Assembly: GCA_001787005.1 (NCBI GenBank)
Contig: MFUV01000005.1
Coordinates: forward strand, 2,764-66,763
DNA: 64,000 bases
DNA from: Candidatus Nomurabacteria bacterium RIFCSPLOWO2_01_FULL_39_18
GTDB taxonomy: Bacteria; Patescibacteriota; Minisyncoccia; Phycocordibacterales; UBA9973
Reading direction: 5' to 3'
Shown: piece after piece, positions 405 to 54,977 of the stretch
Layout: every line of letters starts with the position of its first letter
How positions within the stretch are numbered: the stretch's first letter is position 1
Notes under the pieces: model-generated
The model's database searches: none
Seen by the model: the letters and a program-made list of their open reading frames with translations, nothing else
Told to the model about the DNA's origin: nothing
Made by a program: the position numbers and the translations under genes

Positions 405-715
405 AAAGAAGCCCGCCCGCATTCATTCCCCAGACCCCTTTCTGCGGGCGGGAAATCCGCCGAGGTTTTGCCAAATCCTTTTCCCCAGAAAATAGTTTGG
501 CAAAACCGAGTCCGTTTTGAATTCCGTCAGTTTCTCCCTTAGGAGAAACCCGACCTCGCTCTCGCCACCACCATACCGAAAAATAAAAAAGGAAATCGCG
601 CCAAATCAAAACAGAATGCGTGGTGGCGAGGCGAGGGCGGAACGGAACAGCGGTAGCGGAGAGACACTGCTTCCGCAGTGTCTCGTAGCGGACGATGTAC
701 CGTGACGGAATTCAT
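405..715. other. GC-rich island of at least five strong hairpins plus a long-range 11-bp pairing; either a structured RNA or leader, or a nest of palindromic repeat elements
   Basis: Hairpins: gcccgcccgc/gcgggcggg; ggttttgccaaa/tttggcaaaacc; tttctcc-ctta-ggagaaa; ctcgctctcgccaccacc/ggtggtggcgaggcgagg; gagacactgc-ttcc-gcagtgtctc. In addition, gaattccgtca (519-529) pairs with tgacggaattc (703-713). GC content is far above the flanking DNA. The ORFs the track calls here have no coding character. Confidence 0.4.
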
Positions 716-8734: not shown

Positions 8735-8811
8735 ACCCGGCAGTAGAGCTTGGCAATACTTATAAAGTAAATTTTTATTTTAAAAAAACTTTGCCAAGTC
8801 TCACTACCGGG
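8735..8811. repeat. REP-like hairpin element (ACCCGGtAGTAGAGCTTgG...CAAGTCTCACTACCGGGT), copy 1
   Basis: Imperfect long stem with conserved termini shared with copies at 12815-12854 and 37053-37122. Termini resemble the inverted repeats that flank the IS200/RAYT-like gene at 45576/46294. Confidence 0.5.
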
Positions 8812-10845
8812 TGCTATATTTCAGATGTGACAACAGAAGCTCAACATCTAGGAGGATTAAATAACGAACAAAAAGAAGCGGCGCTTCATATGAAGGGTCC
8901 TATGCTCATTATCGCGGGCGCGGGCGCGGGAAAGACTAAAACAATAACACACCGAATTGTGAATTTGATAAAGGAGGGTATCGTCCCAGATAAAATCCTG
9001 GCTGTAACATTCACCAACAAAGCGGCTAAAGAAATGCGAGAGAGGATTATCGCAGAAATTGAGAAAAATGCGGGAGAACAAGACTCCGTACCGTTTGTCA
9101 GCACTTTCCACTCATTGGGAGTTTTTATTATAAAAGAAAATGCCAGGGTTCTGGGACTAACAAAATATTTCACCATTTTGGACGAGTCAGATTCTACGAT
9201 ATTGATCAAAGAATCATTAAAAGAATTGGGGATAGATCCAAAACAGCATGACCCGAAAAAAATAAAAAACATTATCAGCCGAGAGAAGGGGAAGTTCGTG
9301 CATTTGCCTATGTTTACAGAAGAAAGAACGGATTATGTGGGCAAAATTGTGGCGCAAGTTTGGAATTTGTATGAAAAGAAAAAGGAAAAAGAAAATTCGC
9401 TGGACTTTGATGATCTGCTTTTGAAAGCAACGAAATTATTGCAAGAACGGGAAGAAATTAGGCAAATTTATCAAGAAAAATGGGAATATATTCACATCGA
9501 TGAGTATCAGGACACAAATGAAGTGCAATATTTAATGTCAAAATTGCTTTCTGAAAAGCATAAAAACATAGCTGTGGTAGGGGATGCCGATCAGAATATA
9601 TATTCTTGGCGCGGAGCAAATTTAAAAAATATTTTGAGTTTTGAAAAAGATTACCCTGACGCAAAGATAGTCTTGCTGGAGCAGAATTATAGATCAACAA
9701 AAAACATCTTGGAAGCCGCGAACGTAATAATTAAAAAAAATAAATACCGCCCAGATAAAAATTTATTTACGAAAAACGCCATGGGTGAAAAAATTGGTTT
9801 TTATGAAGCGCTTGATGAGACCGATGAAGCGGACTTTGTGGCAACAAAGATTTTGGAAATTTTGGACAGGGCTGGTGTTGCTTTTGAGAATGGTCTGGCT
9901 GGGGGAGGGACCCAGGAATCCGAGGACCTGAGCAAAAGCAACACCAGCCCTGTCCTCTCCAACATAGCAATTCTCTATCGCGCAAATTTTCAATCTAGGG
10001 CGCTGGAAGAAGCAATGCTAAGATACAACATTCCATATCAAGTTTTAGGTGTTAAATTTTTCGAAAGAAAAGAAATCAAAGATACTTTGGCATATCTGCG
10101 CGCGGCATTAAACAGAGACAGTCTTTCGGATATAAAAAGAATTATCAATTTCCCTGCGCGAGGCATAGGGAAAGTAACTTTGGTGAAAATTTTCGCGGAT
10201 GATATAGAGAACCTGCCAGTAAAAATGAAAATAAAAATTATTAATTTTTATGAAATATTGGAGGAGATAAAAGAAAAAATAAAAAGTGAAAAGGCAAGCC
10301 AGGTGATAAAATTCGTAGTGAAAAAGTCTGGCATTGAAAACGAATTATCGAGTGGCACCGAGGAAGACATGGAAAGACTTGAAAACATAAAAGAGCTTGT
10401 AACATTGGCCCTCAAATATGACAATCTGGCGCCAGGGCTAGGCATAGAAAAGCTTTTAGAAGATGCGTCGCTTGCTTCTGATCAGGATTCTTTGATTGAA
10501 AGAGGAGAGAAGAAAGAAGTAAAAAATTCAGTAAAATTAATGACAGTTCATGCATCAAAGGGGCTTGAATTCAAATATGTTTTCATCACTGGGCTAGAAG
10601 ATGGACTCTTCCCACACGAGAAACAAAATGAAGAAACTAGTATTGATAGCGAAGAGGAGCGCAGACTTTTCTATGTAGCGGTTACCCGGGCTCGGAATAA
10701 ATTGTTTTTGTCATTTGCAAATTTTCGCACTATCTTTGGTTCACGCTCCATTAATACTCCATCAGAATTTATTTCCGATATCCCAGCTGATTTATTAGAA
10801 AAAGAAGAAGAGAAAAATTTATTGAAAACAATTTATTTAGACTAG
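8791..10845 (+). CDS. pcrA: ATP-dependent DNA helicase PcrA/UvrD (SF1)
   Basis: Walker A IIAGAGAGKTKTITHRI, DEYQDTN, QNYRST, VKLMTVHASKGLEFKYVF, LFYVAVTRAR. The true start is probably the GTG at 8827 (MTTEAQHLGGLNNEQKEA..), just after the REP-like hairpin. The gene carries an 88-nt palindromic insert at 9866-9953. Confidence 0.9.
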   Translation: MPSLTTGCYISDVTTEAQHLGGLNNEQKEAALHMKGPMLIIAGAGAGKTKTITHRIVNLIKEGIVPDKILAVTFTNKAAKEMRERIIAEIEKNAGEQDSVPFVSTFHSLGVFIIKENARVLGLTKYFTILDESDSTILIKESLKELGIDPKQHDPKKIKNIISREKGKFVHLPMFTEERTDYVGKIVAQVWNLYEKKKEKENSLDFDDLLLKATKLLQEREEIRQIYQEKWEYIHIDEYQDTNEVQYLMSKLLSEKHKNIAVVGDADQNIYSWRGANLKNILSFEKDYPDAKIVLLEQNYRSTKNILEAANVIIKKNKYRPDKNLFTKNAMGEKIGFYEALDETDEADFVATKILEILDRAGVAFENGLAGGGTQESEDLSKSNTSPVLSNIAILYRANFQSRALEEAMLRYNIPYQVLGVKFFERKEIKDTLAYLRAALNRDSLSDIKRIINFPARGIGKVTLVKIFADDIENLPVKMKIKIINFYEILEEIKEKIKSEKASQVIKFVVKKSGIENELSSGTEEDMERLENIKELVTLALKYDNLAPGLGIEKLLEDASLASDQDSLIERGEKKEVKNSVKLMTVHASKGLEFKYVFITGLEDGLFPHEKQNEETSIDSEEERRLFYVAVTRARNKLFLSFANFRTIFGSRSINTPSEFISDIPADLLEKEEEKNLLKTIYLD
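9866..9953. repeat. Intragenic palindromic element inside pcrA, with 23-bp perfect terminal inverted repeats around a 37-nt GC-rich core
   Basis: ggacagggctggtgttgcttttg ... caaaagcaacaccagccctgtcc flank the core ggtctggctgggggagggacccaggaatccgaggacc. That core is the exact reverse complement of 11225-11261 in rsmA. It is translated in frame as ..AGVAFENGLAGGGTQESEDLSKSNTSPVLS.. Confidence 0.65.
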
Positions 10846-10882: not shown

Positions 10883-11851
10883 ATGCAAAAAGAAAGAAAA
10901 TACAAAGCAAAAAAGTCGTTAGGGCAAAATTTTTTAAAATCAGAACTGGCTTTAAAAAAAATTATTGAAGCAGGGGAGATAAAAAGGGGTGACATAATTT
11001 TAGAAATAGGACCAGGCAGAGGAGCATTGACCGAAAAACTTCTAGAAAAAGTTTACCTTGCTGGGGCGGGGCAGGGGTTGGTCATCGCAGTTGAAAAAGA
11101 CCGCGAGCTTTTTGAATTTTTAAAAACAAAATTTAAAAAAGAAATAGAGCAACGCTCTCTTGTACTAGTATATGGAGACATATTAAAATTTGATGCAAAA
11201 AAAACTGTTTTGAAGTTTTTTTCAGGTCCTCGGATTCCTGGGTCCCTCCCCCAGCCAGACCATTCAAAAAACTCAAAATCGTCTGATTTTAAAATAATTG
11301 CCAACATCCCCTACAACATCACTGGAGCGATTTTGAAAAAATTTTTAGGAGGGTTAAACCAACCGACAGACATGGTATTGATGGTTCAGCAAGAAGTCGC
11401 GAGGAGGATAATGGCCCGAGATAGTAAAGAAAGTATTCTTTCGATTTCTGTGAAGGCTTATGGTGAACCAAAAATTGTTATGAAGGTGCCAGCGCGATAT
11501 TTCAGGCCTGTGCCGAAAGTAGATTCAGCGATAATCATTATAAAAAATATTTCTCGCAAAATTTTTTCAGTATTACCCCCTCCGCCCAGAAAGTCTAATT
11601 GGGCACCTCCCCCTTATCAAGGGGGAGGTAGTAAAGAAGTTCAAGGTAAAACCTTGAACAGCCATGAATTTGAAGAGAAATTCTGGGAAATAGTGAAAGC
11701 GGGCTTTGCCCATAAGAGAAAAAAGCTCTCCAGTAATTTAAAAAATCTAAAAGACGGAAGCAAGGCTTCCGTCTCGAGCCTGGGAGATAGGAGAGCGGAA
11801 GATTTAACACTAGAAGACTGGATTGCGTTGTGTAAAAAGTGTTATAATTAA
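10883..11851 (+). CDS. rsmA: 16S rRNA (adenine1518/1519-N6)-dimethyltransferase RsmA/KsgA
   Basis: SLGQNFL, ILEIGPGRGALTEKLL, ANIPYNITGAIL. At 322 aa it is longer than typical RsmA because of two GC-rich in-frame inserts (11221-11268 and 11598-11634). Confidence 0.9.
   Translation: MQKERKYKAKKSLGQNFLKSELALKKIIEAGEIKRGDIILEIGPGRGALTEKLLEKVYLAGAGQGLVIAVEKDRELFEFLKTKFKKEIEQRSLVLVYGDILKFDAKKTVLKFFSGPRIPGSLPQPDHSKNSKSSDFKIIANIPYNITGAILKKFLGGLNQPTDMVLMVQQEVARRIMARDSKESILSISVKAYGEPKIVMKVPARYFRPVPKVDSAIIIIKNISRKIFSVLPPPPRKSNWAPPPYQGGGSKEVQGKTLNSHEFEEKFWEIVKAGFAHKRKKLSSNLKNLKDGSKASVSSLGDRRAEDLTLEDWIALCKKCYN
11221..11268. repeat. Intragenic GC-rich element in rsmA (tcaggtcctcggattcctgggtccctcccccagccagaccattc), inverted copy of the pcrA element core
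   Basis: 37 nt identical, and about 48 nt near-identical, to the reverse complement of 9891-9927. Flanked by an A/T-rich imperfect inverted repeat. Encodes FFSGPRIPGSLPQPDHSK in RsmA. Confidence 0.65.
11598..11634. repeat. GC-rich hairpin element cctccccc-ttatcaa-gggggagg inside rsmA
   Basis: 8-bp G/C stem with loop TTATCAA. The same loop and a near-identical stem (ccccctcc-ttatcaa-ggaggggg) occur at 19463-19485 inside another gene. Translated as PPPYQGGGS. Confidence 0.55.
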
Positions 11852-18710: not shown

Positions 18711-19697
18711 ATGGATAAAGAAGAATTACAACAGAAAATAGCATTGTACTACTCAAAGCTTCCACCAAAAGCGCAAGCGGTTTTTTCCAGTATGAAATGG
18801 CTTGAGACTATAAAGAGCATAAGTGAAAAGTACGGCTTAAATGACAAACAGAAAGAGATACTCGGCACGGAAACAACTTTGGTGCTTTTGGGCATAATCG
18901 ATATAATCAAGTATGAAGAAATATTGATAGAAGAACTAGCATTATCGAAAGAGTCTGTAGATAAGATGCTTTCAGAAATAAACGATCTAATTATAAATAA
19001 TATACGACCCGAACTCATTGATGCATTCAACGCAAATAAAAATTCTCTAGAAAAAGAAAACCCAGAAATTGAACCAGTCTTAGACACACGTTTTGGGAAA
19101 TTATCACCGGATTTGGAAAAGATAATTGACGAATCCAATTATCAAGACATTCTCTATGGTATTGGCAAAGAGAAAAATTTCAGCGTTACGAAGATGGGAG
19201 CGCTTGAAAGAGCAACCACTGATCTAATAATGGGTACTATTCATCCAGATGAATTCGAGAATGTGCTAGAGAATAATTTAGAATTACCGCTAGAAAAAGT
19301 CAGAGAACTAGTAAATATTATCAACGAAAGAATTTTCAAAAAAATACGGGAAGAATTGATAAAGAATGTTGAGAGAAAAAAGATATTCGCGAACAAAAAA
19401 GCTGAAGAAAAACAGGATACGCAAGTATTGGGCGCCCACGGCATCGAGATTGTCGAGAATCCCCCCCTCCTTATCAAGGAGGGGGCGGGGGGTGGTAATT
19501 CAGAAGAGAACCACCCCGCCTCTGGCACCCCTCCTCAACAAGGAGGGGAAGAAACGCATCCCATATTAGCGCAAAAGTTATCCGGCCCTTATCAGGCTCC
19601 AGTAGTCAAGACGGACCACTCCTTGCAAAATCTTCAGCCTTCTTCTGAACAACAAAATAAGCCTGTAATTGATCCTTACCGCGAAATTCCGGAGTAG
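18711..19697 (+). CDS. Hypothetical protein (T4SS cluster) carrying a GC-rich palindromic insert near its C-terminus
   Basis: 328-aa ORF. The region 19461-19560 is GC-rich and palindromic (ccccctcc-ttatcaa-ggaggggg ...) and is translated in frame as PPLLIKEGAGGGNSEENHPASGTPPQQGGEE. Confidence 0.55.
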   Translation: MDKEELQQKIALYYSKLPPKAQAVFSSMKWLETIKSISEKYGLNDKQKEILGTETTLVLLGIIDIIKYEEILIEELALSKESVDKMLSEINDLIINNIRPELIDAFNANKNSLEKENPEIEPVLDTRFGKLSPDLEKIIDESNYQDILYGIGKEKNFSVTKMGALERATTDLIMGTIHPDEFENVLENNLELPLEKVRELVNIINERIFKKIREELIKNVERKKIFANKKAEEKQDTQVLGAHGIEIVENPPLLIKEGAGGGNSEENHPASGTPPQQGGEETHPILAQKLSGPYQAPVVKTDHSLQNLQPSSEQQNKPVIDPYREIPE

Positions 19698-23918: not shown

Positions 23919-23996
23919 GTGAAATTTAATGAGTGAAATGAATATAAATTTCCTCATCCCGTACTAAATTTTAGATTAAATGATATTAAAATAAAA

Positions 23997-25049: not shown

Positions 25050-25130
25050 AATAATTTTACTTGTCCCGTACTAAATTTTTGATTACGGGGTATAATGATA
25101 AAAATTAATAAATAAAATTTTAGTATCGGG

Positions 25131-26495
25131 ATGTCAAAAAGAAACTTCACACTTTTAATAATAATTTTAATTCTAGGAACAGTCGGGTTTTTTGTATTTC
25201 TATATTCTCGTGGAGAGACACCTAGAGGAGAGGGAGGCGAGGGCACTAATTTCATCGCAAGGTTTAATCCATTCAGCAACAAAAAACCAGCGCCGGAAGA
25301 CACAGGGCCCACAGAGGATACCTCTTCACCTATAGAAGATCCTGAAGAAAAAATGCTGGAAGTAGAACTAAAAAAAGTTTCAAGTATGGAAATCGCTGGG
25401 TTTGGAGTATTTACGAAAGAAAGATTGAAAGAGATGAACCCCTCTCCAGCCCTCCCCTTGTCAGGGGAGGAAGAGAATCCTGCCCCCCCTGCTAAGGGGG
25501 GTTCGGGGAGTCTGAAACCCACACCGCCACCGACTGAATTTGCAACAGCAGTAAGATATGTGGCGAGAGCTACTGGGAACATTTATCAGACTTTCGCAGA
25601 CAAAATAATTGAGCGAAAGTTTTCTGGAACATTAATACCTAAAGTATACGAAGCGCATTTCGGCAATCATGGGGGATCTGTGGTGATGCGATACTTAAAG
25701 GGGGATGAAAAGACCATAGAAACTTTTTTCAGTGTCCTCCCGAAAGAATATTTGGGCGGTGATGCAACGGAAAACAATGAGATAAAAGGATCATTCTTAC
25801 CTAATAACATAAAAGATATAAGCCTTTCATCTGATACTTCTAAAATATTCTACCTTTTTGAGAGTGAAAGTAATTTAGGAGAAAGCATCATAGGCACAAC
25901 CTTGAGCTTGTTGGACAATAAAAAGGTTCAGATATTTGATTCTCCTTTTACGGAATGGCTGTCATCCTGGCCAAATAATAAAATTATCACCCTTTCCACT
26001 AAGCCTTCTGCGAACACTCCAGGATACATGTACAGCATTGATGGAGTTGGTAAAAACTTAACTAAAATCTTGGGTGATATAAATGGATTAACTACGCTCA
26101 CAAGTCCGGACGGAAAGTTGGTTCTTTACAGTGATAATAATCTAACTTCATATATTTACCATACGGATACTAAAAGTTCGGATTTATTGGGGATAAAAAC
26201 TCTGCCAGAAAAATGTGTCTGGGGGGGCGGGAGTGATATTTTTTACTGCGCTGTACCGAAATTAATTGGCGCTAGCCAATATCCAGATACTTGGTACCAG
26301 GGAGAAGAGTCATTTTCTGACCAAATTTGGAAAATAGATGTTGAAACAGGAAATGCCACCATGATCGAAGACCCGATCATGGCTCTGGGGGGAGAGGATG
26401 TTGATGGCATTAAGCTTGCTTTAGACGAAGGAGAGAGTTATCTATTTTTTGTAAACAAAAAAGATTCTTTTTTGTGGGAACTAAAGCTGAAATAA
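25131..26495 (+). CDS. Membrane-anchored protein with TolB-like beta-propeller repeats; hypothetical
   Basis: N-terminal TM helix LLIIILILGTVGFFVFLY. A GC-rich in-frame insert at 25452-25510. Repeats such as SPDGKLVLYSDNN. Confidence 0.55.
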   Translation: MSKRNFTLLIIILILGTVGFFVFLYSRGETPRGEGGEGTNFIARFNPFSNKKPAPEDTGPTEDTSSPIEDPEEKMLEVELKKVSSMEIAGFGVFTKERLKEMNPSPALPLSGEEENPAPPAKGGSGSLKPTPPPTEFATAVRYVARATGNIYQTFADKIIERKFSGTLIPKVYEAHFGNHGGSVVMRYLKGDEKTIETFFSVLPKEYLGGDATENNEIKGSFLPNNIKDISLSSDTSKIFYLFESESNLGESIIGTTLSLLDNKKVQIFDSPFTEWLSSWPNNKIITLSTKPSANTPGYMYSIDGVGKNLTKILGDINGLTTLTSPDGKLVLYSDNNLTSYIYHTDTKSSDLLGIKTLPEKCVWGGGSDIFYCAVPKLIGASQYPDTWYQGEESFSDQIWKIDVETGNATMIEDPIMALGGEDVDGIKLALDEGESYLFFVNKKDSFLWELKLK

Positions 26496-26578
26496 ATCAC
26501 CACCCCTGACCCCTCCTCGAAAAGGAGGGGAGGTCCCCTCTCCCCCTGCGAAGGGGGAGAGCTTGAAAGGCGAGGGGG
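26496..26578. terminator. Pair of GC-rich hairpins between convergent genes (cccctcc-tcgaaaa-ggagggg and ctctccccc-tgcgaa-gggggagag)
   Basis: Perfect 7- and 9-bp G/C stems immediately after the stop codons of 25131..26495(+) and jag(-). They belong to the same GC-rich palindrome family found inside genes. Confidence 0.5.
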
Positions 26579-27073
26579 TTAGATAGCGCCAATGTATTTG
26601 ATCACTACTCGGCGAGACGGTCCGAAACCAACTGATTCAGTTTTTAGATCCGTGGCATCGGACAAAAATTCATGTACCACCCGTCGTTCGAAAGCTGACA
26701 TCGGATCCACTTCTATGTTTGATTTGAAATAGCGCGCTCGCTCCGACATCATATGTGCCACGGCACGAACATTATCAACACGTTTCTTTTGGAAACCATT
26801 AATGTCAATTAGAATTTCTGGCCACATGTCGGACTTGTGGGAATCCCACAAGTCCGACATGTGGTCTCTCTTGGCTTCAATCATTCTGCGAGCAAGATGG
26901 TTTAAGGCATTGAGCGCTTCACCATCGCGAGAGATGAAAAGATGCGGTTCATTTACCTCAACTGAAAACCATGTATTAGTACCATTGTCTTCAGTAATGG
27001 TAATTTTGTTGAGCATCGTTCCAGTTTTCTCAATCAATTCTTTTATTAAATTTTGTATTGTTTCCTTGTCCAT
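26579..27073 (-). CDS. jag: Jag/KhpB RNA-binding protein (KH + R3H domains)
   Basis: R3H motif RRVVHEFLSD. Position immediately downstream of yidC in the conserved rnpA-yidC-jag arrangement. Confidence 0.85.
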   Translation of the reverse strand: MDKETIQNLIKELIEKTGTMLNKITITEDNGTNTWFSVEVNEPHLFISRDGEALNALNHLARRMIEAKRDHMSDLWDSHKSDMWPEILIDINGFQKKRVDNVRAVAHMMSERARYFKSNIEVDPMSAFERRVVHEFLSDATDLKTESVGFGPSRRVVIKYIGAI

Positions 27074-36768: not shown

Positions 36769-37052
36769 AGGTGTATCTACTTTCTGGATCATCATCTTCT
36801 GGTTCAAAGCCGGGCATTTCTTCGAGTGGGATATTTGGGTCGAATGACTCTTCATCACCGTCCACCTTAAACCCACTACTTATTTCTTCATCTTCATCGT
36901 AACTCATATAAAATTATTTTTTTCCGCCAGGGGCGGATCCGCCTTGGGCGGAAAATTTTTTAAACGACCAAATTATATTTATTTCCCAATTTCATACTTT
37001 GTAACAAAATATAAATCGCTTGGCAATAGCAAAAAGACCAAAAGTGTGGATA

Positions 37053-37122
37053 ACCCGGTAGTAGAGCTTTGCGATATGCGAAGCATGCATCGAAGATGCG
37101 TCGCAAAGTCTCACTACCGGGT
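37053..37122. repeat. REP-like hairpin element, copy 3
   Basis: acccggtagtagagctttgcga ... tcgcaaagtctcactaccgggt with an inner GCATGC-centred hairpin. Same termini as copies 1 and 2. Confidence 0.5.
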
Positions 37123-45549: not shown

Positions 45550-45575
45550 TTTTGGATAGGTAAAGTAACCAATAA

Positions 45576-46318
45576 GAGCTTTAGACTCTCACTGCGAGTT
45601 ATGATATAGTAAGATACATGCGGAAGGAACCACTAATAACGGGAGAGTATTACCATATTTATAATAGAGGCGTAGATAAGCGAGATATTTTTAATAATCT
45701 GAAAGATCTCGAGCGTTTTAAAGAAAGCATAAAACAATTTAATCAAATTGAAGGCATTGGTAGTTTAGAAATGTACAATAAATCAATAAGAGCTTTAGGC
45801 TCTCACCCCGACAGTTATCTGAAATTAAAATCAGAACCACTTGTGGCTATCATTGCTTTTTGTATCAACCCCAATCATTTTCATTTTCTTATTAAACAAC
45901 TTGTCGACGGCGGGATAGCTAAATTTTTTCAAAAACTTCAGGGTGGGTATACTTATTATTTTAATCAAAAAAACCAGAGATCGGGGGCACTACTTCAGGG
46001 GACTTTTAAATCTAAATTAATTAAAAATGATGATTATTTCAGAAAAACATTTGCATATGTAAATCAAAATTATTCTGTTCACAATATTCCTAAAAGCAAA
46101 CTTCCTTTTATTTTTGCAAGTGACACGGAATATGAAAGCGAGCTTTTTAATTTAGTGTCAAAGTCTGAAGGACAAAAGATGCTAGACATTTTTGAAGGTA
46201 AGAATAATCTTAAAAAACATTGTAAAGAAATTATATCAATTATTCGAGAAGAACGGGGGAAAACTTCCCTAGAAGAACCGGATGAATTATTTCAGTGAGA
46301 GTCTAAAGCTCTCACTGG
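45576..46318. mobile_element. IS200/IS605-type (RAYT-like) unit: Y1 HUH transposase gene flanked by 20-bp perfect inverted repeats
   Basis: Left AGAGCTTTAGACTCTCACTG (45576-45595) and right CAGTGAGAGTCTAAAGCTCT (46294-46313) are exact reverse complements. The right flank itself forms a 9-bp-stem hairpin. Confidence 0.6.
45618..46298 (+). CDS. IS200-like / REP-associated tyrosine transposase (HUH Y1 family)
   Basis: YHIYNRGVDKRDIF..ERF, HuH motif NPNHFHFLIK, and YFNQKNQRSGALLQGTFKSKLIKNDDYFRKTFAYVNQN (catalytic Tyr region). These align closely with IS200 TnpA blocks. Confidence 0.8.
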   Translation: MRKEPLITGEYYHIYNRGVDKRDIFNNLKDLERFKESIKQFNQIEGIGSLEMYNKSIRALGSHPDSYLKLKSEPLVAIIAFCINPNHFHFLIKQLVDGGIAKFFQKLQGGYTYYFNQKNQRSGALLQGTFKSKLIKNDDYFRKTFAYVNQNYSVHNIPKSKLPFIFASDTEYESELFNLVSKSEGQKMLDIFEGKNNLKKHCKEIISIIREERGKTSLEEPDELFQ

Positions 46319-46835: not shown

Positions 46836-46911
46836 AATACTTGTCCCGTACTAAATTTTTGATTATGACACATGACCATTATTAATAAAAACTTAAAATT
46901 TTAGTACCGGG

Positions 46912-47607
46912 ATGATTTATCTTTTTTCTGGCGATGATGTGAAGAATAAACACCTCTCTTACGAGAAGTTTATAAAATCCCTGCCTGCGCAGGCAGGTAT
47001 TCCAGCGAATACTGAAACCTTTTTTATAAACAGAAATGATTTTAATAGGAATCAGATAGAAAGTCTTTATTCTGGGTCAGGTCTTTTTTTCGAAGATTGC
47101 GTAGTGGTATTCCAAGATGTTTTCGAGAGAGAAGAAACTCGAGAATTTGTTTTAGAGAAGTTGGATTTAATGGGCAAATCTTCCAGCTCTTTTGTTTTTC
47201 TAGAAGGTAAATTAAATAAACCGATTCTAGATGCTTTCAAGAAAATCGAGCCAAAAAAACTCCAGATTAATATTTTCGAATTACCGAAAGAAAAAAAGGA
47301 GAAATTCAATAATTTTCTTCTAGCCAATGCTTTTGGAGTTAGAGATAAATTAAATCTTTGGATTTATTTCCGGCAAGCTGTCGACCTCGGGGTGGGGATG
47401 GAGGAGTTGATCGGAGTACTTTTCTGGAAAATCAAGGATATGCTAATAAAAAAAGATTTCCGCAAATTCTCCGAAGCAGAACTTAAAAATTCCGCCTCTC
47501 GCCTCTCCTACCTTTTACCAGAAGCCCGCAAGGCTAGTCGTGACGCCGAAGCAGTCTTTGAGCAGTTTTTGCTTGAAGCTTTTTTAAAGAGTACTATAAT
47601 TAAGTAG
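46912..47607 (+). CDS. Hypothetical protein, possibly a short DNA polymerase III delta-subunit-like (HolA-like) protein
   Basis: N-terminus MIYLFSGDDVKNKHL resembles HolA starts. Contains the in-frame 18-nt palindrome CCTGCCTGCGCAGGCAGG (LPAQAG) at 46980-46997. The ATG abuts an inverted-repeat right arm. Confidence 0.35.
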   Translation: MIYLFSGDDVKNKHLSYEKFIKSLPAQAGIPANTETFFINRNDFNRNQIESLYSGSGLFFEDCVVVFQDVFEREETREFVLEKLDLMGKSSSSFVFLEGKLNKPILDAFKKIEPKKLQINIFELPKEKKEKFNNFLLANAFGVRDKLNLWIYFRQAVDLGVGMEELIGVLFWKIKDMLIKKDFRKFSEAELKNSASRLSYLLPEARKASRDAEAVFEQFLLEAFLKSTIIK

Positions 47608-48239: not shown

Positions 48240-48248
48240 TCAGAACTG

Positions 48249-48321
48249 TGCGCCCGGTTGGGATCGAACCAACGACCTTATCCTTAAAAGGGATCTGCTC
48301 TACCGACTGAGCTACGGGCGC
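48249..48321 (-). tRNA. tRNA-Lys (anticodon UUU)
   Basis: Cloverleaf: acceptor GCGCCCG/CGGGCGC; D-arm GCTC-AGTCGGTA-GAGC; anticodon loop CTTTTAA; T-arm GTTGG-TTCGATC-CCAAC. No encoded CCA. Confidence 0.9.
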
Positions 48322-48578
48322 ATGTGTTTTATTAAATTTTTAACAAATTCTCTACCCCTAAAACTTTTTAATTGTCGCTCCCTTTTTATGGCTTCAGTTC
48401 TCGTGGGGAATGCTTCTTTATGGATCAATGCCCACGGACCCCTATTTTGCAAAGTGAACTTACCTAAATGATCACCCCCGTTACTATTATGCTGTTTTAG
48501 TCTGCTATCTATATCGATAGTTTGACCTATATATATCTTATCAGAGGTCTGACTATAAATTGCATAAACTGTGAACAT
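48312..48578 (-). CDS. Small GIY-YIG nuclease-domain protein (UPF0213/YhbQ-like)
   Basis: VYAIYSQTSDKIYIGQTIDIDSRLKQHNS matches the GIY-YIG motif. 88 aa. Its last 10 nt, including the TAG stop, are nt 1-10 of tRNA-Lys. Confidence 0.75.
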   Translation of the reverse strand: MFTVYAIYSQTSDKIYIGQTIDIDSRLKQHNSNGGDHLGKFTLQNRGPWALIHKEAFPTRTEAIKRERQLKSFRGREFVKNLIKHMRP

Positions 48579-48585
48579 AAATTTT

Positions 48586-48628
48586 TCTGCTCTACCTCTG
48601 CCAGCTGGCGGATGAGCTACGGGCGCAT
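48586..48628 (-). repeat. Partial duplicate of the tRNA-Lys 5' end (nt 1-14 and 18-28), with a 17-nt palindromic insert in the D-loop position
   Basis: gatgagctacgggcgcat and tctgctctacc match the tRNA. They are interrupted by tctgccagctggcggat, which is related to the 18-bp palindrome at 1623-1640. The copy lies 7 nt upstream of the GIY-YIG ATG. Confidence 0.5.
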
Positions 48629-48829
48629 CTTGTGATAGTATAAGAAATAAGGCTAAAAATCAAGAAAAATGGTAATATATTAGTATGTTTAAGATCAGCA
48701 AAACGTTGTTGTGCTTTCTAATTTTAACGATAGTAAGTTCTTTGTTTGCTTACACTATTATAGTAAAAGCATACGAAAATGCATATCCCGACTATTTAAT
48801 CCAATAAATTTTCGTGTTAAGGTGTAACT

Positions 48830-51112
48830 ATGACTCAAGGTATTTTCAAGTTGCATAGCCCATTTAAACCAGCTGGCGATCAGCCTGTGGCTATTTTAAA
48901 GCTCCTTGATGGATTAGAGAAGGGCATGCAAAAACAAACTCTGCTCGGGGCAACTGGCACAGGCAAGACTTTTACCATGGCAAATGTGATAGTAGAATAC
49001 AATAAGCCGACATTGGTAATAGCGCACAACAAAACCCTTGCGGCTCAACTAGCTCAGGAATTCAGAGAATTTTTCCCAGATTCCGCGGTGCACTATTTTG
49101 TTTCCTACTATGATTATTACCAACCAGAAGCTTATATGCCGACAACGGACACTTATATAGAAAAGGATGCGCAGATAAACAAAGAAATAGATCGTCTTCG
49201 TCATGCTTCAACCCAAGCGCTTTTGACTAGACGAGATGTTATCATTGTCGCTTCCGTGTCTTGTATTTATGGTTTAGGTTCTCCAGAAGAATATGAAAAA
49301 GTTAATTTAAAAATTAAACTTGGTATGAAAATGGAGAGGCTGACTCTGATGAAACGTCTGATTGAAATTCATTTCGAACGCACAAATGCTGATCTTACCC
49401 CAGGGACTTTCCGATCTATCGGCTCTTGGGTAGAATTTATGCCAGTGTCAGAGACAATAATGTACCAGATTGAAATAGATGATGGGGCTGTCTCAAAAAT
49501 AACCAAAATTGATCCAATTTCTTCTCAGATAATAAAAGAAGAGAAAGATGTTTTTATTTTTCCGGCCAAGCATTTCATCACAGAAGATACGAAAAAGAAC
49601 AAAGCCCTGATTGAAATTAAGAAAGAACTCGCATTGCAATTAAAAAAGTTTCAGAAAGAAGGCAAGTTGCTTGAGGCAGAGCGGATAAAGCGCCGGACCA
49701 ATTACGATCTCGCCATGATCAAGGAAGTTGGTTATTGCAGTGGCATCGAAAATTATTCGCGACATTTATCAGGTAAACAAAAAGGCGAACCGCCAGAAAC
49801 CTTGCTCTCTTATTTCCCCCATACTGGAGATGGCGAACCTGATTTTCTTACCATCATTGATGAATCCCACGTAACTCTGCCTCAACTAGAAGGTATGTAT
49901 GCGGGCGATGCTTCACGCAAAAAAACCCTTGTAGAATATGGTTTTCGCCTGCCTTCAGCTAAGGATAACCGGCCTCTTAAATATGAGGAATTTCAGAAGC
50001 GCATCGGTCCAGTAGTTTATACCAGTGCGACGCCCGGAAAATACGAAATAGAAGAAAGTAAAAAAGAATGTGAACAAACTTGCCCCGCACGAAGTACTCT
50101 TTCGTGCGGGGTCGTAGAGCAAATAATCCGACCAACCGGGCTTGTCGATCCAGAGACAATAGTTCGACCAGTGAGTGCAAATTCTCCTCTTGAGGAGTAC
50201 CCGAAGGGGGAGGTGGATGAATTTTCCACCCCGTCTCGCAAGCGATCCACTCCTCAAGAGGGGAATAAATACCCCGGCCAGATTCAAGATTTTATAAGTG
50301 AAGCAGAGAAAACAATTAAAAAGGGTTTTCGAGTTCTAGCCACCACACTAACAAAAAAAATGGCCGAAGATCTGTCTCTTTATCTCAAAGACCTGCCTGC
50401 GCAGGCAGGCAAGAAAATAAAATCAGAGTATCTGCATAGTGATATAAAAACTTTGGAAAGAATCCAAATACTTTCAAAGTTTCGCAAAGGTGATTTTGAT
50501 GTTTTGGTGGGAGTAAACTTGCTTCGCGAAGGGCTTGATTTGCCCGAAGTGGCGTTAATTGGGATTCTCGATGCAGACAAAGAGGGATTTTTGCGCTCAG
50601 AAACATCTCTTATCCAAACCATCGGGCGTGCCGCGCGCAACAGTGAAGGGAAGGTAATTCTCTATGCAGATGTTATCACTGGCTCGATGAATAAAGCGCT
50701 AGCCGAAACTGCTCGTCGTCGGGATATTCAGCTCACCTATAATAAAAAGCACGGCATCACCCCCAAGACGATAATAAAAAAGATAAAAGATATTACCGAA
50801 GAATTCGAAAGTGAACATGGAAAAGCTGTAAATGCAGAATTAAAACTTGATGTGGAAATATTCCGTAGAGCTTACAAAAAAGAACTGACTAGACCACTTA
50901 AACCAAAAGGTTTAGGCGAATCGCATCTCTCTGATCAAGAAATAGAGGCATTAACCTATGAGAAAATAATAAAAATAAAAGAAAAAGAAATGAATCGAGC
51001 CGTGAAAGAGCTGGATTTCGAAACAGCGGCCATACTTCGTGATGAAATTAGAGTTTTGTCTCAAAAAACTGTTTACGGTACCGGCAATAAAACAAAAAAT
51101 GTAGTTCCTTGA
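48830..51112 (+). CDS. uvrB: Excinuclease ABC subunit B
   Basis: Walker A GATGTGKTFT, beta-hairpin region, helicase motifs, and a C-terminal UvrB/UvrC interaction domain (EIEALTYEKIIKIKEKEMNRAVKELDFETAAILRDEI). At 760 aa it carries about 90 aa of GC-rich in-frame inserts (50082-50116, 50176-50281, 50392-50409). Confidence 0.95.
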   Translation: MTQGIFKLHSPFKPAGDQPVAILKLLDGLEKGMQKQTLLGATGTGKTFTMANVIVEYNKPTLVIAHNKTLAAQLAQEFREFFPDSAVHYFVSYYDYYQPEAYMPTTDTYIEKDAQINKEIDRLRHASTQALLTRRDVIIVASVSCIYGLGSPEEYEKVNLKIKLGMKMERLTLMKRLIEIHFERTNADLTPGTFRSIGSWVEFMPVSETIMYQIEIDDGAVSKITKIDPISSQIIKEEKDVFIFPAKHFITEDTKKNKALIEIKKELALQLKKFQKEGKLLEAERIKRRTNYDLAMIKEVGYCSGIENYSRHLSGKQKGEPPETLLSYFPHTGDGEPDFLTIIDESHVTLPQLEGMYAGDASRKKTLVEYGFRLPSAKDNRPLKYEEFQKRIGPVVYTSATPGKYEIEESKKECEQTCPARSTLSCGVVEQIIRPTGLVDPETIVRPVSANSPLEEYPKGEVDEFSTPSRKRSTPQEGNKYPGQIQDFISEAEKTIKKGFRVLATTLTKKMAEDLSLYLKDLPAQAGKKIKSEYLHSDIKTLERIQILSKFRKGDFDVLVGVNLLREGLDLPEVALIGILDADKEGFLRSETSLIQTIGRAARNSEGKVILYADVITGSMNKALAETARRRDIQLTYNKKHGITPKTIIKKIKDITEEFESEHGKAVNAELKLDVEIFRRAYKKELTRPLKPKGLGESHLSDQEIEALTYEKIIKIKEKEMNRAVKELDFETAAILRDEIRVLSQKTVYGTGNKTKNVVP
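50082..50116. repeat. Perfect 11-bp-stem GC hairpin (ccccgcacgaa-gtactct-ttcgtgcgggg) inside uvrB
   Basis: Translated as TCPARSTLSCGV, between conserved blocks where other UvrB proteins have no such segment. Confidence 0.55.
50176..50281. repeat. About 105-nt GC-rich element with inverted terminal repeats inside uvrB
   Basis: tcctcttgaggagt (50177-50190) and actcctcaagaggg (50264-50277) are inverted copies of each other. The element encodes NSPLEEYPKGEVDEFSTPSRKRSTPQEGNKYP between the conserved IVRP and GQIQD.. blocks. Confidence 0.55.
50392..50409. repeat. 18-nt self-complementary element CCTGCCTGCGCAGGCAGG inside uvrB (LPAQAG)
   Basis: Identical 18-mer at 46980-46997 in an unrelated gene, where it also reads LPAQAG. 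Degenerate copy at 55495-55512 in uvrC (LPTQAS). Confidence 0.6.
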
Positions 51113-52406: not shown

Positions 52407-54977
52407 ATGGCAAAACAAGAAAAAGAATCAAATAAAATAATAATAAAAGGGGCGCGAACACACAACCTTAAGAATATTACGGTTGAAATACCACGAGATA
52501 AGATGACAGTCATTACCGGAGTTTCTGGAAGTGGCAAATCTTCTCTCGCCTTCGATACAATTTTTGCCGAAGGGCAGAGGCGATACGTAGAGTCGTTGTC
52601 TTCTTATGCCCGGCAATTTCTGAATCAAATGCCCAAGCCGGACGTGGATGAAATCACGGGGCTTTCACCCGCTATTTCCATTGACCAAAAATCCCGATCG
52701 AACAATCCTCGCTCCACCGTAGCGACCATTACAGAAATTTATGATTATCTCCGGGTAATGTACGCGCGTATTGGGCACCCGCACTGCCCGGAATGCGGAG
52801 AAGAGATAAAGAAACTTTCTAATGAAGAAATTTTGAATTTTATTCAAAATAAAATCAAAACTCATTCTTCTGTTTCTATTTTTTCTCCAGTCGTTAGAGG
52901 GAGAAAAGGAGAATATTACCAGTTATTGTACGACTTGCTGGGCAAAGGTTTTTCCGAGATTCGGCTGGATGGAACGATGAAAAAGCTTCGGGAGCAAATC
53001 ACCCTCTCAAAATACAAAGCTCACAACATCGAGGTCTTGGTGGATGGTTTTTCGATTGATGGATTAAAAAAAGAAGAATTGCGCATGCGCTTGTCTGAAG
53101 CGATCGAGCGAGCTCTGATTGAATCTGACGGACTAGTCACAACTAAAATTAATGATGAAGAATTTATTATGTCTGCAAAATTTGCCTGCAAAAATGACGG
53201 CTTTTCTTTTCCAGAGATTGAGCCTCGTTTATTTTCTTTTAATTCTCCCTATGGCGCATGCCCAGCTTGTAATGGCCTTGGTTCGAAGTATTTTATGGGA
53301 GACGAACCCTGTGATGTTTGTCATGGTGCGCGCCTTCGCACCGAAGCCCTAAATGTTTTTTTGGAAACTAAAAATAAAAAAGTTAATATTTTAGATCTCG
53401 CTTCTCTCTCCATTGCCGATGCGCATGATTTTTTCAAGAACCTTAAGCTCTCAAGCCAAGAGAAAGAAATATCCATGCCAGTAGTGAGGGAGATAGAAGC
53501 GCGGCTACAATTCATGCTCGACGTTGGGCTCAACTACCTTCAGCTTTCTCGTAAAGCCAATACTCTCTCCGGCGGAGAGGCTCAGCGCATTCGCCTGGCT
53601 TCACAGCTCGGCTCCAGGCTTGTGGGAGCTCTCTATGTGCTCGATGAGCCGACGATAGGGCTTCATCAACGAGACAATGACCGTTTAATCAGAACATTGC
53701 AGAATCTGCGCGATCTAGGCAATACGATTTTAATTGTTGAACACGATGAAGACACTATTTATGCATCAGATTATATCGTAGATATTGGACCGAAGGCTGG
53801 GGTGCATGGCGGGGAAATTATTGTTTCTGGTTTTCTCGAGGATTTATTGACTGCTAACCCCGAACGAAAGCCTACGGCTTCATACGGGGCAGGGAAAAAC
53901 ACGAAGTCCAGAACACTTGGCTATTTAAGAGGTGAGTTAAAAATAGAAATTCCCAAGAAGCGTCGCGGCGGTAAAGGCGCGCTTCGCATCAGCGGGGGAA
54001 AAATTTTTAATATAAATAATTTGAATGTAGAAATTCCGCTTGGCGTCATGACCTCTATCACCGGTGTGTCCGGGAGCGGTAAAAGTTCCTTAATGTATGA
54101 AATTCTTTACAAGAATTTACAGGCGAGGTATGAACGCAAATATCGTACTGCTAAAGTTTACAATTGCTCTTCTTTTTCTGGTACTGAATACCTATCTCGA
54201 GCGATTTTAATTGACCAATCACCCATTGGTCGAACTCCGCGTTCTAATTTGGCAACTTATACGGGCGCTTTTACTCATATTCGAGACCTTTTTGCCACCA
54301 CCGAAGAGGCTCGTCTGCGTGGCTGGAAGGCAAACCGCTTTTCTTTCAACGTCAAAGGCGGCCGCTGTGAAGCTTGTGAAGGCAACGGCGAGATCGCTGT
54401 GGAAATGCACTTTTTGCCGACAGTTTACGTGACTTGCGATGTATGCAACGGCAAAAGATTTGATAAAGAAACACTTACTGTAAAATATAAGAAAAAAAAT
54501 ATTTATGAAGTGCTCCACATGACGGTCGAAGTTGGACTCTCATTCTTCAAGGACATTCCTGCGATTTCTGATCGACTGGAAACTCTGATGGATGTGGGAC
54601 TAGGGTATCTAGAGCTTGGTCAGTCGGCCACCACACTCTCTGGCGGGGAAGCGCAACGGGTAAAAATATCGAGTGAGCTATATCGTCCGCATGCAGATAT
54701 GACCATCTATCTTCTTGATGAACCTACTGTGGGGTTGCACTATGATGATGTGCATAAACTATTGGAAGTGTTAAATAAACTTGTAAGTAAAGGCAACACC
54801 GTCATTCTAATAGAGCACAATCTGGACATTATAAAGAGTTCAGACTACATAATAGATATTGGGCCAGAAGGGGGAATGAATGGGGGTAATTTAGTGGCGA
54901 AGGGCACACCAGAAGAAGTGGCGAATAATACAAAAAGCTACACTGGGAAATATTTAAAGAGGGCTTTACGCAAATGA
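52407..54977 (+). CDS. uvrA: Excinuclease ABC subunit A
   Basis: Two ABC modules ([15 protein letters not shown] and [15 protein letters not shown]), LSGGEAQR x2, and zinc-finger Cys clusters. Carries a 32-nt palindromic insert at 53858-53889 translated as [13 protein letters not shown]. Confidence 0.95.
53858..53889. repeat. CCCCGAACGAAAGC..GCTTCATACGGGG palindromic element inside uvrA, same family as the ruvB insert
   Basis: Its reverse complement, ccccgtatgaagc...ttcgttcgggg, matches the CCCCGTAGGAAGC/TTCCTTCGGGG termini. Both intragenic copies read ASYGAGK in the host frame. Confidence 0.6.

Follow-up and report, generated by a model that had tools for sequence, protein, structure and literature searches.

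The uvrB gene of Candidatus Nomurabacteria bacterium RIFCSPLOWO2_01_FULL_39_18, an ultra-small groundwater organism of the candidate phyla radiation (CPR), lies in a 64,000-nt stretch of contig MFUV01000005.1, hereafter called the window (the whole stretch of DNA that was analysed), and its coding sequence holds three inserts, here designated elements A, B and C (Table 1). The gene was recognized in the list of open reading frames (ORFs) and by the match of its product to the solved UvrB of B. caldotenax (2fdc_A; 739 bits, E = 4.5e-221, residues 3-741, three blocks), a similarity that extends over the full length of the protein; the helicase motifs are intact and are invariant across the homologues, whose domains are PF04851, PF17757, PF27431, PF00271, PF12344 and PF02151. 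The nearest homologues (73-84% identity) are UvrB proteins of Candidatus Nomurabacteria and Paceibacterota (Patescibacteria, CPR). The alignment to 2fdc_A is interrupted at three spots, which are the positions of A, B and C, so that all three lie in gaps between conserved blocks. In the numbering of 2fdc_A, element A falls between residues 404 and 405, past helicase motif III, element B between residues 427 and 429, and element C at about 467-470, in the loop between the first helix and the following strand; the 427-429 stretch we take to be the linker of the two RecA-like domains, and 467-470 to be part of the second of these, UvrB domain 3. A preliminary description of this DNA, made from the sequence alone, had placed both A and B between the IIRPTGL/IVRP and GQIQD blocks, which holds for B (between IVRP and GQIQD) but not for A, which precedes IIRPTGL; C is past TTLTKKMAEDL.

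Element A contains the perfect 11-bp stem that had been noted earlier, closed by a 7-nt loop (50083-50111), with 0 matches in 100 shuffles; the RNA folds at -23.4 kcal/mol (z = -6.4), the DNA at -14.4 kcal/mol. Element B had been described as an element of about 105 nt flanked by terminal inverted repeats (TIRs), and the inverted ends are indeed present (arms of 18 nt, 94% complementary), but the element measures 87 nt (50180-50266). Its arms enclose an inner hairpin, GGTGGA/TCCACC (50212-50217 and 50225-50230), and the fold of the whole element reaches -46.1 kcal/mol (z = -5.8). Element C, correctly identified at the outset as a third insertion, is a perfect 18-nt palindrome read as LPAQAG, and recurs in identical form within ORF 46912-47607, for which no Pfam or NCBIfam match was found; shuffles gave no match to this repeat. 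Compared with an empty relative (P0005, 703 aa), the inserts add 15 + 27 + 6 = 48 codons net, and not the approximately 90 aa first suggested, the whole protein being 57 aa longer; UvrB length ranges from 697 to 792 aa among sequences that are about 77% identical. In an AlphaFold2 (AF2) model of the window UvrB the predicted local distance difference test score (pLDDT) is below 50 at residues 418-424 (A) and 450-478 (B), and coil is predicted at 448-483 and in the region of C. The model as a whole is of moderate quality (mean pLDDT 61) and several native regions also score below 50; the low values at the inserts are therefore supporting evidence that is weak when taken alone.

Site occupancy was scored in 121 sequences, i.e. 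the query and its 120 closest homologues, of which 14 are filled at site A, 61 at site B and 18 at site C. In the UvrB proteins of approximately 40 non-CPR genomes among the matches listed (Firmicutes, Actinobacteria and other phyla), site A invariably measures 10 aa and site B 1 aa, and in other CPR lineages the baseline of site B is 7 residues; orthologues from outside the CPR, which lack the repeats, thus do not conserve these segments. The inserts had been called lineage-specific and GC-rich; they are absent from non-CPR UvrB, and G+C over the inserts rises only to 0.50-0.53 against 38.7% (0.39) for the window. Codon alignments were made with contigs of three relatives, among which L001 has B and a variant of C without A, L002 has A and the variant of C without B, and L004 has none of the three. 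Relatives thus show filled and empty states in all combinations, and the three insertions are therefore independent, as was originally claimed; the comparison shows that A, B and C came into uvrB as separate events, each in a loop or a linker. Each insert amounts to a whole number of codons without a stop, leaving a single 760-aa ORF, and the frame is likewise kept in every other in-gene copy that we describe below. To call the host gene essential, as had been done, is an overstatement; uvrB is normally not an essential gene.

Each of the three segments belongs to a dispersed family with copies in unrelated genes, in agreement with the original impression that such repeat families colonize coding sequence. 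For family A, a scan of metagenomes with the hairpin-A pattern gave 89 matching stretches, of which 80 loci were retrieved (L090-L169), mostly from groundwater samples; these hold 85 copies in 65 distinct contexts, with the consensus CCTGCCCCGTAGGAAGTACTCTTTCCTTCGGGGT and an insertion length of 36 nt, i.e. 12 codons. Within ORFs of at least 100 aa lie 75 of the 85 copies, and these ORFs form 32 unrelated host protein clusters (29 of 30 scanned representatives were named by Pfam, the UvrB cluster by sequence and the last by eye). Ten of the 32 clusters act on DNA, a raw count in which protein length and tolerance of insertions are not factored in; among the hosts are Fpg, UvrA, UvrB, UvrC, UvrD, RuvB, TopA and DnaE as well as an Xth-like nuclease and an HhH-GPD glycosylase, and further hosts include GatB, PNPase, transketolase, enolase, TGT, MiaA, TrmD, MnmA, MurB, MurD, GrpE, ribonucleotide reductase and ATP synthase gamma. 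Relative L002 has additional copies in uvrA and uvrC, and the uvrA gene of the window carries a diverged copy at a site where relatives have a consensus copy. The family is read in four ways, CPVRSTLSCGV, DPEGKSTSYGAG, TPNERVLRTGQ and PRRKEYFLRGR. Of the six possible frames all but one are open, but the 49 distinct insertion events are concentrated in a single one, DPEGKSTSYGAG, which accounts for 41 of them and has the hydrophilic, Gly- and Ser-rich reading [DN]PEGKSTSYGAG (binomial p ~1e-21 against one in five); the copy in uvrB is among the few in the CPV.STLS.GV frame. At stem pair 8-22 of the family, 72 copies have G-C, 8 have C-G and 3 have T-A or T-G, and the pairing is broken in only 1 of 84.

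Some observations on individual copies of family A may be added. At uvrB site A of L089, the loop of hairpin A houses a second hairpin, GGTCTTC-GGA-GAAGACC, i.e. a nested insertion, and the more distant CPR UvrB of L022 has an unrelated insert at site A, with 44 aa in place of the usual 10. Two intergenic copies lie 1.5 kb apart in L109 (5560-5640 and 7060-7130), each followed by GGTTCGAA and then by a terminator-like hairpin; between them no transposase-like ORF was recognizable, no family search having been run on this interval, and ARAGORN found no tRNA.

Further copies of the terminal repeat of element B were also found. The B subfamily comprises four copies, and its intergenic members (L163 3024-3105 and L091 1060-1150) define the ends of the element and yield the TIR consensus AATTCCCCTCTTGAGGGGT; the wider superfamily, with more than 15 matches in 0.7 Mb, has the ends CCCCTCCTT..AAGGAGGGG and the inner hairpin GGGGxGGTGG/CCACCCC, and is hosted in relatives by uvrA, uvrC, topA and other genes. 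In different hosts B is read as NSPLEEYP..., PPLLIKEG... or NSPHPSPLLGKERG. The superfamily ends CCTCCTT...AAGGAGG place anti-Shine-Dalgarno-like and Shine-Dalgarno-like runs in coding sequence (19460-19550 in the window, L088 11341-11431, L002 15511-15600), a pairing which may be a coincidence or may be relevant to translation. The variant of C in L001 and L002 is the 18-nt palindrome CTGCCTGCCGGCAGGCAG, which with one more base on each side becomes a perfect 20-nt palindrome, CCTGCCTGCCGGCAGGCAGG, with the same half-site; this 20-nt form occurs in uvrB and uvrC of relatives. As one and the same DNA unit is read in differing frames and orientations across hosts, the unit of inheritance is the DNA element and not the peptide. 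A viral collection contained no hairpin A, and its 30 single matches to the B arm, none of them paired, were judged compatible with chance.

Table 1. Positions in the window of uvrB, its inserts and related features (RAYT, repetitive extragenic palindrome (REP)-associated tyrosine transposase)
Feature	Position	Strand	Remarks
uvrB ORF, 760 aa	48830..51112	+	Host of inserts A + B + C; from ORF list and match to solved UvrB
Element A, 36-nt hairpin	50079..50114	+	Read CPARSTLSCGV; stems 50083-50093 / 50101-50111, loop GTACTCT; diverged family-A copy
Element B, 87 nt = 29 codons	50180..50266	+	NSPLEEYPKGEVDEFSTPSRKRSTPQEGN; TIRs 50181-50198 / 50249-50266; bounds from four aligned copies
Element C, 18-nt perfect palindrome	50392..50409	+	CCTGCCTGCGCAGGCAGG, read LPAQAG
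Second identical copy of C	46980..46997	+	Read LPAQAG; inside ORF 46912-47607
Diverged family-A copy within uvrA	53856..53894	-	13-residue reading
B-superfamily element in ORF 18711-19697	19460..19550	+	Read PPLLIKEGAGGGNSEENHPASGTPPQQGG; terminal palindromes CCCCTCCTT..AAGGAGGGG; inner hairpin GGGGTGGT/ACCACCCC
Family D copy in uvrD-like ORF 8791-10845	9864-9955		Perfect 23-bp outer stems 9864-9886/9933-9955
Family D copy in ksgA-like ORF 10883-11851	11216-11271	-	
IS200-like Y1 (HUH) transposase gene, RAYT-like, 226 aa	45618..46298	+	Candidate mobiliser, 2.5 kb upstream of uvrB
Hairpin-type inverted repeat on left flank of Y1 gene	45572..45594		
Right hairpin flanking Y1 gene	46293..46317		CAGTGAGAGTCTAAAGCTCTCACTG

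Taken together, these data indicate that A, B and C are very probably copies of three small non-coding hairpin-forming repeat families of Nomurabacteria-type CPR genomes. Element A would be a REP-like 36-nt stem-loop, element B a unit with inverted ends of the type of REP doublets forming hairpins (REPINs) or of MITEs (miniature inverted-repeat transposable elements), and element C an 18-nt palindrome. The inserts would be translated as extra surface loops of a UvrB that is still functional, and junction peptides of the type ...K-DPEGKSTSYGAG-K... and VSANSPLEEYPK are predicted from them. Our working hypothesis is that selection removes copies that break the frame, are read as an unsuitable peptide or fall in a structured region, in which case the surviving copies would be a biased sample. 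In compact genomes intergenic copies may be lost faster while in-gene copies are trapped: since only a precise in-frame deletion would be harmless, in-gene copies would be hard to lose and would therefore accumulate in housekeeping genes. The intragenic share may also stem from a bias in where elements insert.

As to how such elements move, we consider it a tentative possibility, somewhat short of an even chance, that they do so as single-stranded DNA hairpins by means of RAYT-like Y1 transposases, of which the window encodes one. This gene was picked by a motif screen of 0.77 Mb of related DNA (approximately 970 ORFs, 100-330 aa long), and sits between polA and a PEMT-like gene, a position at which relatives have no such gene. 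Its product has the HUH motif NHFHF and the conserved tyrosine and scores 30.8 bits against Pfam PF01797 (Y1_Tnp; cut-off 23), whereas its 29.5 bits against NCBIfam REP_Tyr_transpos are below the cut-off. A sequence search of the PDB with this ORF returned nothing, and matches came from the fold search alone: the AF2 model (pLDDT 83, predicted template modelling score 0.80) is closest to 4er8_A (E = 1.4e-4, probability 1.00), the E. coli REP-associated tyrosine transposase in complex with a REP hairpin, followed by the IS608 and ISDra2 transposases. There are 2276 homologues with E-values up to 1e-5; among the best 120, those that are named come from Nomurabacteria, Paceibacterota, other Patescibacteria and unclassified bacteria, and some carry the JGI name RayT. 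The Y1 genes of the window, L175 and L136 are flanked by hairpins with stems of 7-9 bp and 7-nt loops. Movement of single strands by a Y1 enzyme would also fit the lack of target-site duplications.

Several points weigh against the explanation as a whole. The hairpins that flank the Y1 gene of the window (GTGAGAG.., CTTGGTA..) are a different family, unrelated to A, B and C and of local occurrence only, and none of the three Y1 genes in the 0.77 Mb of related DNA is flanked by family A, B or C; mobilization by the Y1 enzyme is therefore only inferred. Target-site duplications are absent at the A, B and site-B junctions examined: no direct repeat recurs consistently among four aligned copies of B or 15 different site-B junctions, although old duplications could have decayed, and the junctions of A have neither a duplication nor a common target motif, only T-rich flanks. 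Translation of the inserts is read from their intact frames only. The intragenic share of family A, 88% as compared with 89% for random positions on the same contigs, exceeds what simple random insertion followed by a strong filter would predict. Finally, hairpin A is 90-93% identical to the copies of L002 and L086 (uvrB gene, 74%), and the uvrB copies of A have common derived and compensated substitutions (GTACGAA/TTCGTGC against GTAGGAA/TTCCTTC in the family, in all eight distinct loci examined), which points to a single old insertion event kept intact; old inheritance under constraint, or allele exchange, would fit these copies better than ongoing transposition.

Allele exchange leads to the rival that survives best, even if we think it rather unlikely, namely that filled uvrB alleles spread by homologous recombination or by a homing-like process with a free-standing nuclease, so that new transposition is unneeded. 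Insert B together with approximately 9 nt on each side is nearly identical in the window and L001, with a sharp drop in similarity outside: the insert is 92% identical (third codon positions 90%) and the rest of uvrB 74% (third positions 49%), and no other 29-codon window of the gene equals it. Moreover, on the UvrB distance tree filled sequences are interspersed with empty ones, and small nuclease genes (GIY-YIG, DUF559, PDDEXK_3) occur in these loci. However, allele spread leaves the copies in 32 unrelated host families unexplained, no nuclease is linked to the site, and the tree, at about 77% identity, is poorly resolved, so the scatter is weak evidence.

A second alternative, which we regard as improbable, is that the folded mRNA or DNA has been exapted to serve the host, by slowing the ribosome at a domain boundary, by stabilizing the mRNA or as a mark for a binding protein. 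Identity at third positions is 79-90% in the inserts against 47-50% in the rest of uvrB, compensatory changes keep stems paired (as at pair 8-22 of A, and in the arms of the window B, which have A-T where the family has G-C), G-T pairs are so placed that the sense RNA retains G-U, and B stands exactly at the inter-domain linker. Yet site B is empty in about half of the close relatives and A and C are missing in most, at least 10 unrelated sequences occupy one site, the same elements recur between genes as well as within unrelated ones, in either orientation, the two strands fold to about the same extent, and palindrome repair between the arms could equally maintain the stems. The stems would thus be maintained either by selection on structure or by repair between arms; alternatively or additionally, filled alleles may spread by recombination.

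No better placed is the proposal that B is a classical MITE, cut and pasted by a DDE transposase that recognizes the TIRs, which we likewise find hard to credit. The TIRs of 18-19 nt are the best conserved part among the copies of B, homologues keep the NSPLEEYP and TPQEGN peptides while the loop varies, and B is small and without an ORF of its own; against this, target-site duplications are lacking, a DDE transposase was not seen in the window or in annotated related loci, and each terminus is itself palindromic, a better fit to REP dimers. That the peptides are adaptive loops selected for a lineage-specific UvrB function is very unlikely: the intact frames, the strong single-frame preference of A and the conserved form that its insert takes in uvrB (CEQTCPVRSTLSCG, three cysteines included) would agree with it, but presence varies among close relatives, unrelated peptides occupy one site, identical DNA is found in unrelated proteins and the inserts are low-confidence coil in the model. 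Removal of the inserts as mini-inteins, introns or translational bypass elements can practically be dismissed, since, for all the resemblance of GC-rich in-gene hairpins in an AT-rich genome to the bypass elements of Magnusiomyces mitochondria, 12-29 codons are far too few for an intein, Rfam gave no match to an intron or any other RNA family, and every in-gene copy keeps the frame and lacks a stop, a constraint that removal would make unnecessary.

The intein, intron and bypass readings were rejected. An intein or intron was excluded by the size of the inserts (6, 15 and 27 net codons; 18, 36 and 87 nt), the kept frame and the absence of an RNA family: at gathering thresholds Rfam found two tRNAs in the whole window, and permissive matches at 49900-50500 were sub-threshold and taken as noise. 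An assembly artefact was ruled out by the occurrence of the same inserts in many independent assemblies.

Site B is a hotspot of uvrB: precisely at this position 61 of the 121 UvrB sequences are filled if the cut-off is set at 12 residues, or 64 if it is set at 11. Their peptides fall into 17 clusters, and all 15 of the different filled alleles that were readable as DNA are long hairpins or TIR elements of approximately 60-110 nt; they represent at least 10 unrelated sequence families, with folding energies from -22 to -56 kcal/mol, and decayed remnants are seen in P0038, P0108 and P0058. Several of these families have copies elsewhere, family E in polA of L088, and family D, which is at uvrB site B of L086, L122 and L128, in the uvrD-like and ksgA-like genes of the window (Table 1) and in polA of relatives. 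In this last family a core of approximately 45 nt (GAATGGTCTGGCNGGGGNAGGG.ACCC.G.GAA.CGAGGACCTGA) is conserved, and the outer stems are unrelated in sequence but each self-complementary, a pattern that could reflect nesting within other hairpins or outward growth of the palindrome. Directly before GQI, [YF]P is found in 58 of 64 filled alleles but in 8 of 57 empty ones (Fisher p = 2e-18, a value not corrected for phylogeny), a regularity shared by insert families that are unrelated (DNA of L006, L007, L086-L089, L096, L102, L122, L124 and L174), and in three of the families the inverted repeat runs into the [YF]P codons. Three options are open: TAYCCNGG may be a target sequence, there may have been one ancestral filled allele whose insert was repeatedly replaced, or stems may have grown into the flanking sequence. 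It is a doubtful but intriguing prospect that site B is a true landing pad, where many hairpin families have been captured repeatedly at one codon boundary marked by TAYCCNGG and read Y-P-G. This could come about if the motif or a resident hairpin were targeted by Y1-type single-strand transposition, or if old inserts were replaced in place, by nested insertion followed by deletion. Were it true, the landing pad and the elements in UvrABCD, PolA, DnaE and TopA, in CPR bacteria and Rickettsia, would suggest a mechanistic link of hairpin mobility with genes of DNA repair and replication.

Other features of the window deserve mention. The region 48248-48630 holds a tRNA-Lys(ttt) (48248-48321) with an 88-aa GIY-YIG ORF (48312-48578) directly upstream, on the - strand, and at approximately 48590-48630 a 5' fragment of the same tRNA-Lys, with the GC-rich palindrome CCGCCAGCTGGCAGAGG in place of the D-loop. 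The arrangement resembles that of a GIY-YIG cassette which integrated into a tRNA gene and regenerated the tRNA. A 28-nt intergenic motif, TACTTGTCCCGTACTAAATTTTTGATTA, is present at 25058-25085 and 46838-46865, with a variant at 23944-23978, in each case just 5' of an ORF start (25131, 46912 and 23997, respectively), and is probably a common promoter. More GC-rich palindromes or inverted-repeat elements lie in and between genes, approximately one per 5 kb of the window (549-661; 25438-25514; 26509-26565; 26822-26864; 36920-36955; 8735-8812 and 37053-37122), among them a two-copy family, ACCCGGTAGTAGAGC...GTCTCACTACCGGGT.

With these findings the phenomenon of in-frame 'selfish DNA inside genes', of which Rickettsia has so far been the best-known case, is extended to the CPR, an independent lineage with reduced genomes. 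Part of the variation in length of CPR proteins is repeat-element DNA, which affects alignment, phylogeny, structure prediction and gene calling. The findings also amount to a natural experiment, in which at least 10 element families have entered one linker, in about half of the alleles, and one 12-codon element is tolerated in 32 protein families; with a RAYT-like enzyme at hand, such cases can show which loops accept insertions and how hairpin elements move. Three features stand out: the hotspot that many families occupy, together with its Y-P signature, the preference of A for one reading frame, and the nearby RAYT-like gene.

Among known systems, the GC clusters of yeast mitochondria and the bypass elements are GC-rich repeats within coding sequence, those of Magnusiomyces being skipped by the ribosome; unlike these organellar elements, the Nomurabacteria elements are dispersed repeat families and are apparently translated. 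In the mitochondria of Nematomorpha (PMC6649704) perfect inverted repeats are likewise tolerated in the coding sequence of an AT-rich genome, but the system is organellar and both arms encode conserved protein. Bacterial MITEs that contribute to ORFs (enterobacterial RU/ERIC and Correia-type; PMC2759123, PMC10969869) resemble B in having TIRs, small size, multiple copies and some in-gene copies that lengthen a protein, and B has the TIRs, the length below 300 bp, the lack of a transposase ORF and the multiple copies of a MITE. However, no matching insertion sequence was found, a scan of the viral collection with the TIR giving no paired arms, and the related family D, with its conserved core and varying outer stems, is the opposite of a MITE; as target-site duplications are missing, the elements do not qualify as classical MITEs.

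The likeness to REPs is closer. Family A forms an imperfect palindrome of 36 nt, in which one mismatch of the stem is conserved (T-T in the consensus), and its dimensions, an 11-bp stem and a 7-nt loop, as well as its many dispersed copies, are within those of REPs (palindromes of 20-40 nt, stems of 5-13 bp, loops of 2-20 nt). B looks like a REPIN, i.e. two inverted palindromes and a spacer, and the nearby hairpin-flanked Y1 gene, with a predicted fold closest to RAYT, recalls the layout of REPtrons and TIRtrons. Of the attributes of a REPtron, a RAYT gene is found in the genome but the same dispersed repeats do not flank it, and, in further contrast to REP/RAYT systems, the NCBIfam RAYT model stays below its cut-off. 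The terminal GTAG or CGTC tag of REPs is lacking: the consensus of A, CCTGCCCC-GTAG-GAAG..., carries its GTAG within the stem at a distance of 8 nt from the end, and in the copy of the window GCAC takes its place and there is no CGTC. Because the tag is internal or absent, and because most copies are intragenic where REPs are mainly extragenic, the elements cannot be counted among the GTAG/CGTC REPs. Intragenic REPs have nevertheless been reported in UvrABCD, PolA and DnaE.

The closest parallel is with the Rickettsia palindromic elements, RPE-1 to RPE-8, reportedly the first in-frame palindromic elements, which Ogata and colleagues are said to have described in 2000. In the catalogue of Di Nocera et al. 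2013 (PMC3733652), which covers intragenic REPs tagged with GTAG or CGTC, many of them in UvrABC, UvrD, PolA, RecBCD and DnaE, RPE-4 and RPE-6 are handled as CGTC REPs, and two REPs are tabulated in R. conorii uvrB (RC0550) and one each in uvrC, dnaE, murB and ksgA. The two systems are alike in that small palindromic repeats stand in frame in many housekeeping genes of unrelated function in a reduced, AT-rich genome, are read as extra peptide loops and share the hosts uvrB, uvrC, dnaE, murB and ksgA. They differ in that the Nomurabacteria host belongs to the CPR and not to the Alphaproteobacteria, that here the terminal CGTC tag is lacking and one site is reused by many families, and that CGTC elements have been reported to be without a dedicated transposase, whereas here a RAYT-like gene is present. 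The likeness, which was drawn without an RPE consensus, is thus one of function and not of membership, no relationship in sequence being apparent. In the literature searched no description of such elements in CPR bacteria or Patescibacteria was found, an absence that is not proof. The elements described here are RPE/REP-like colonizers of coding sequence, i.e. elements of a known kind, here found in Nomurabacteria.

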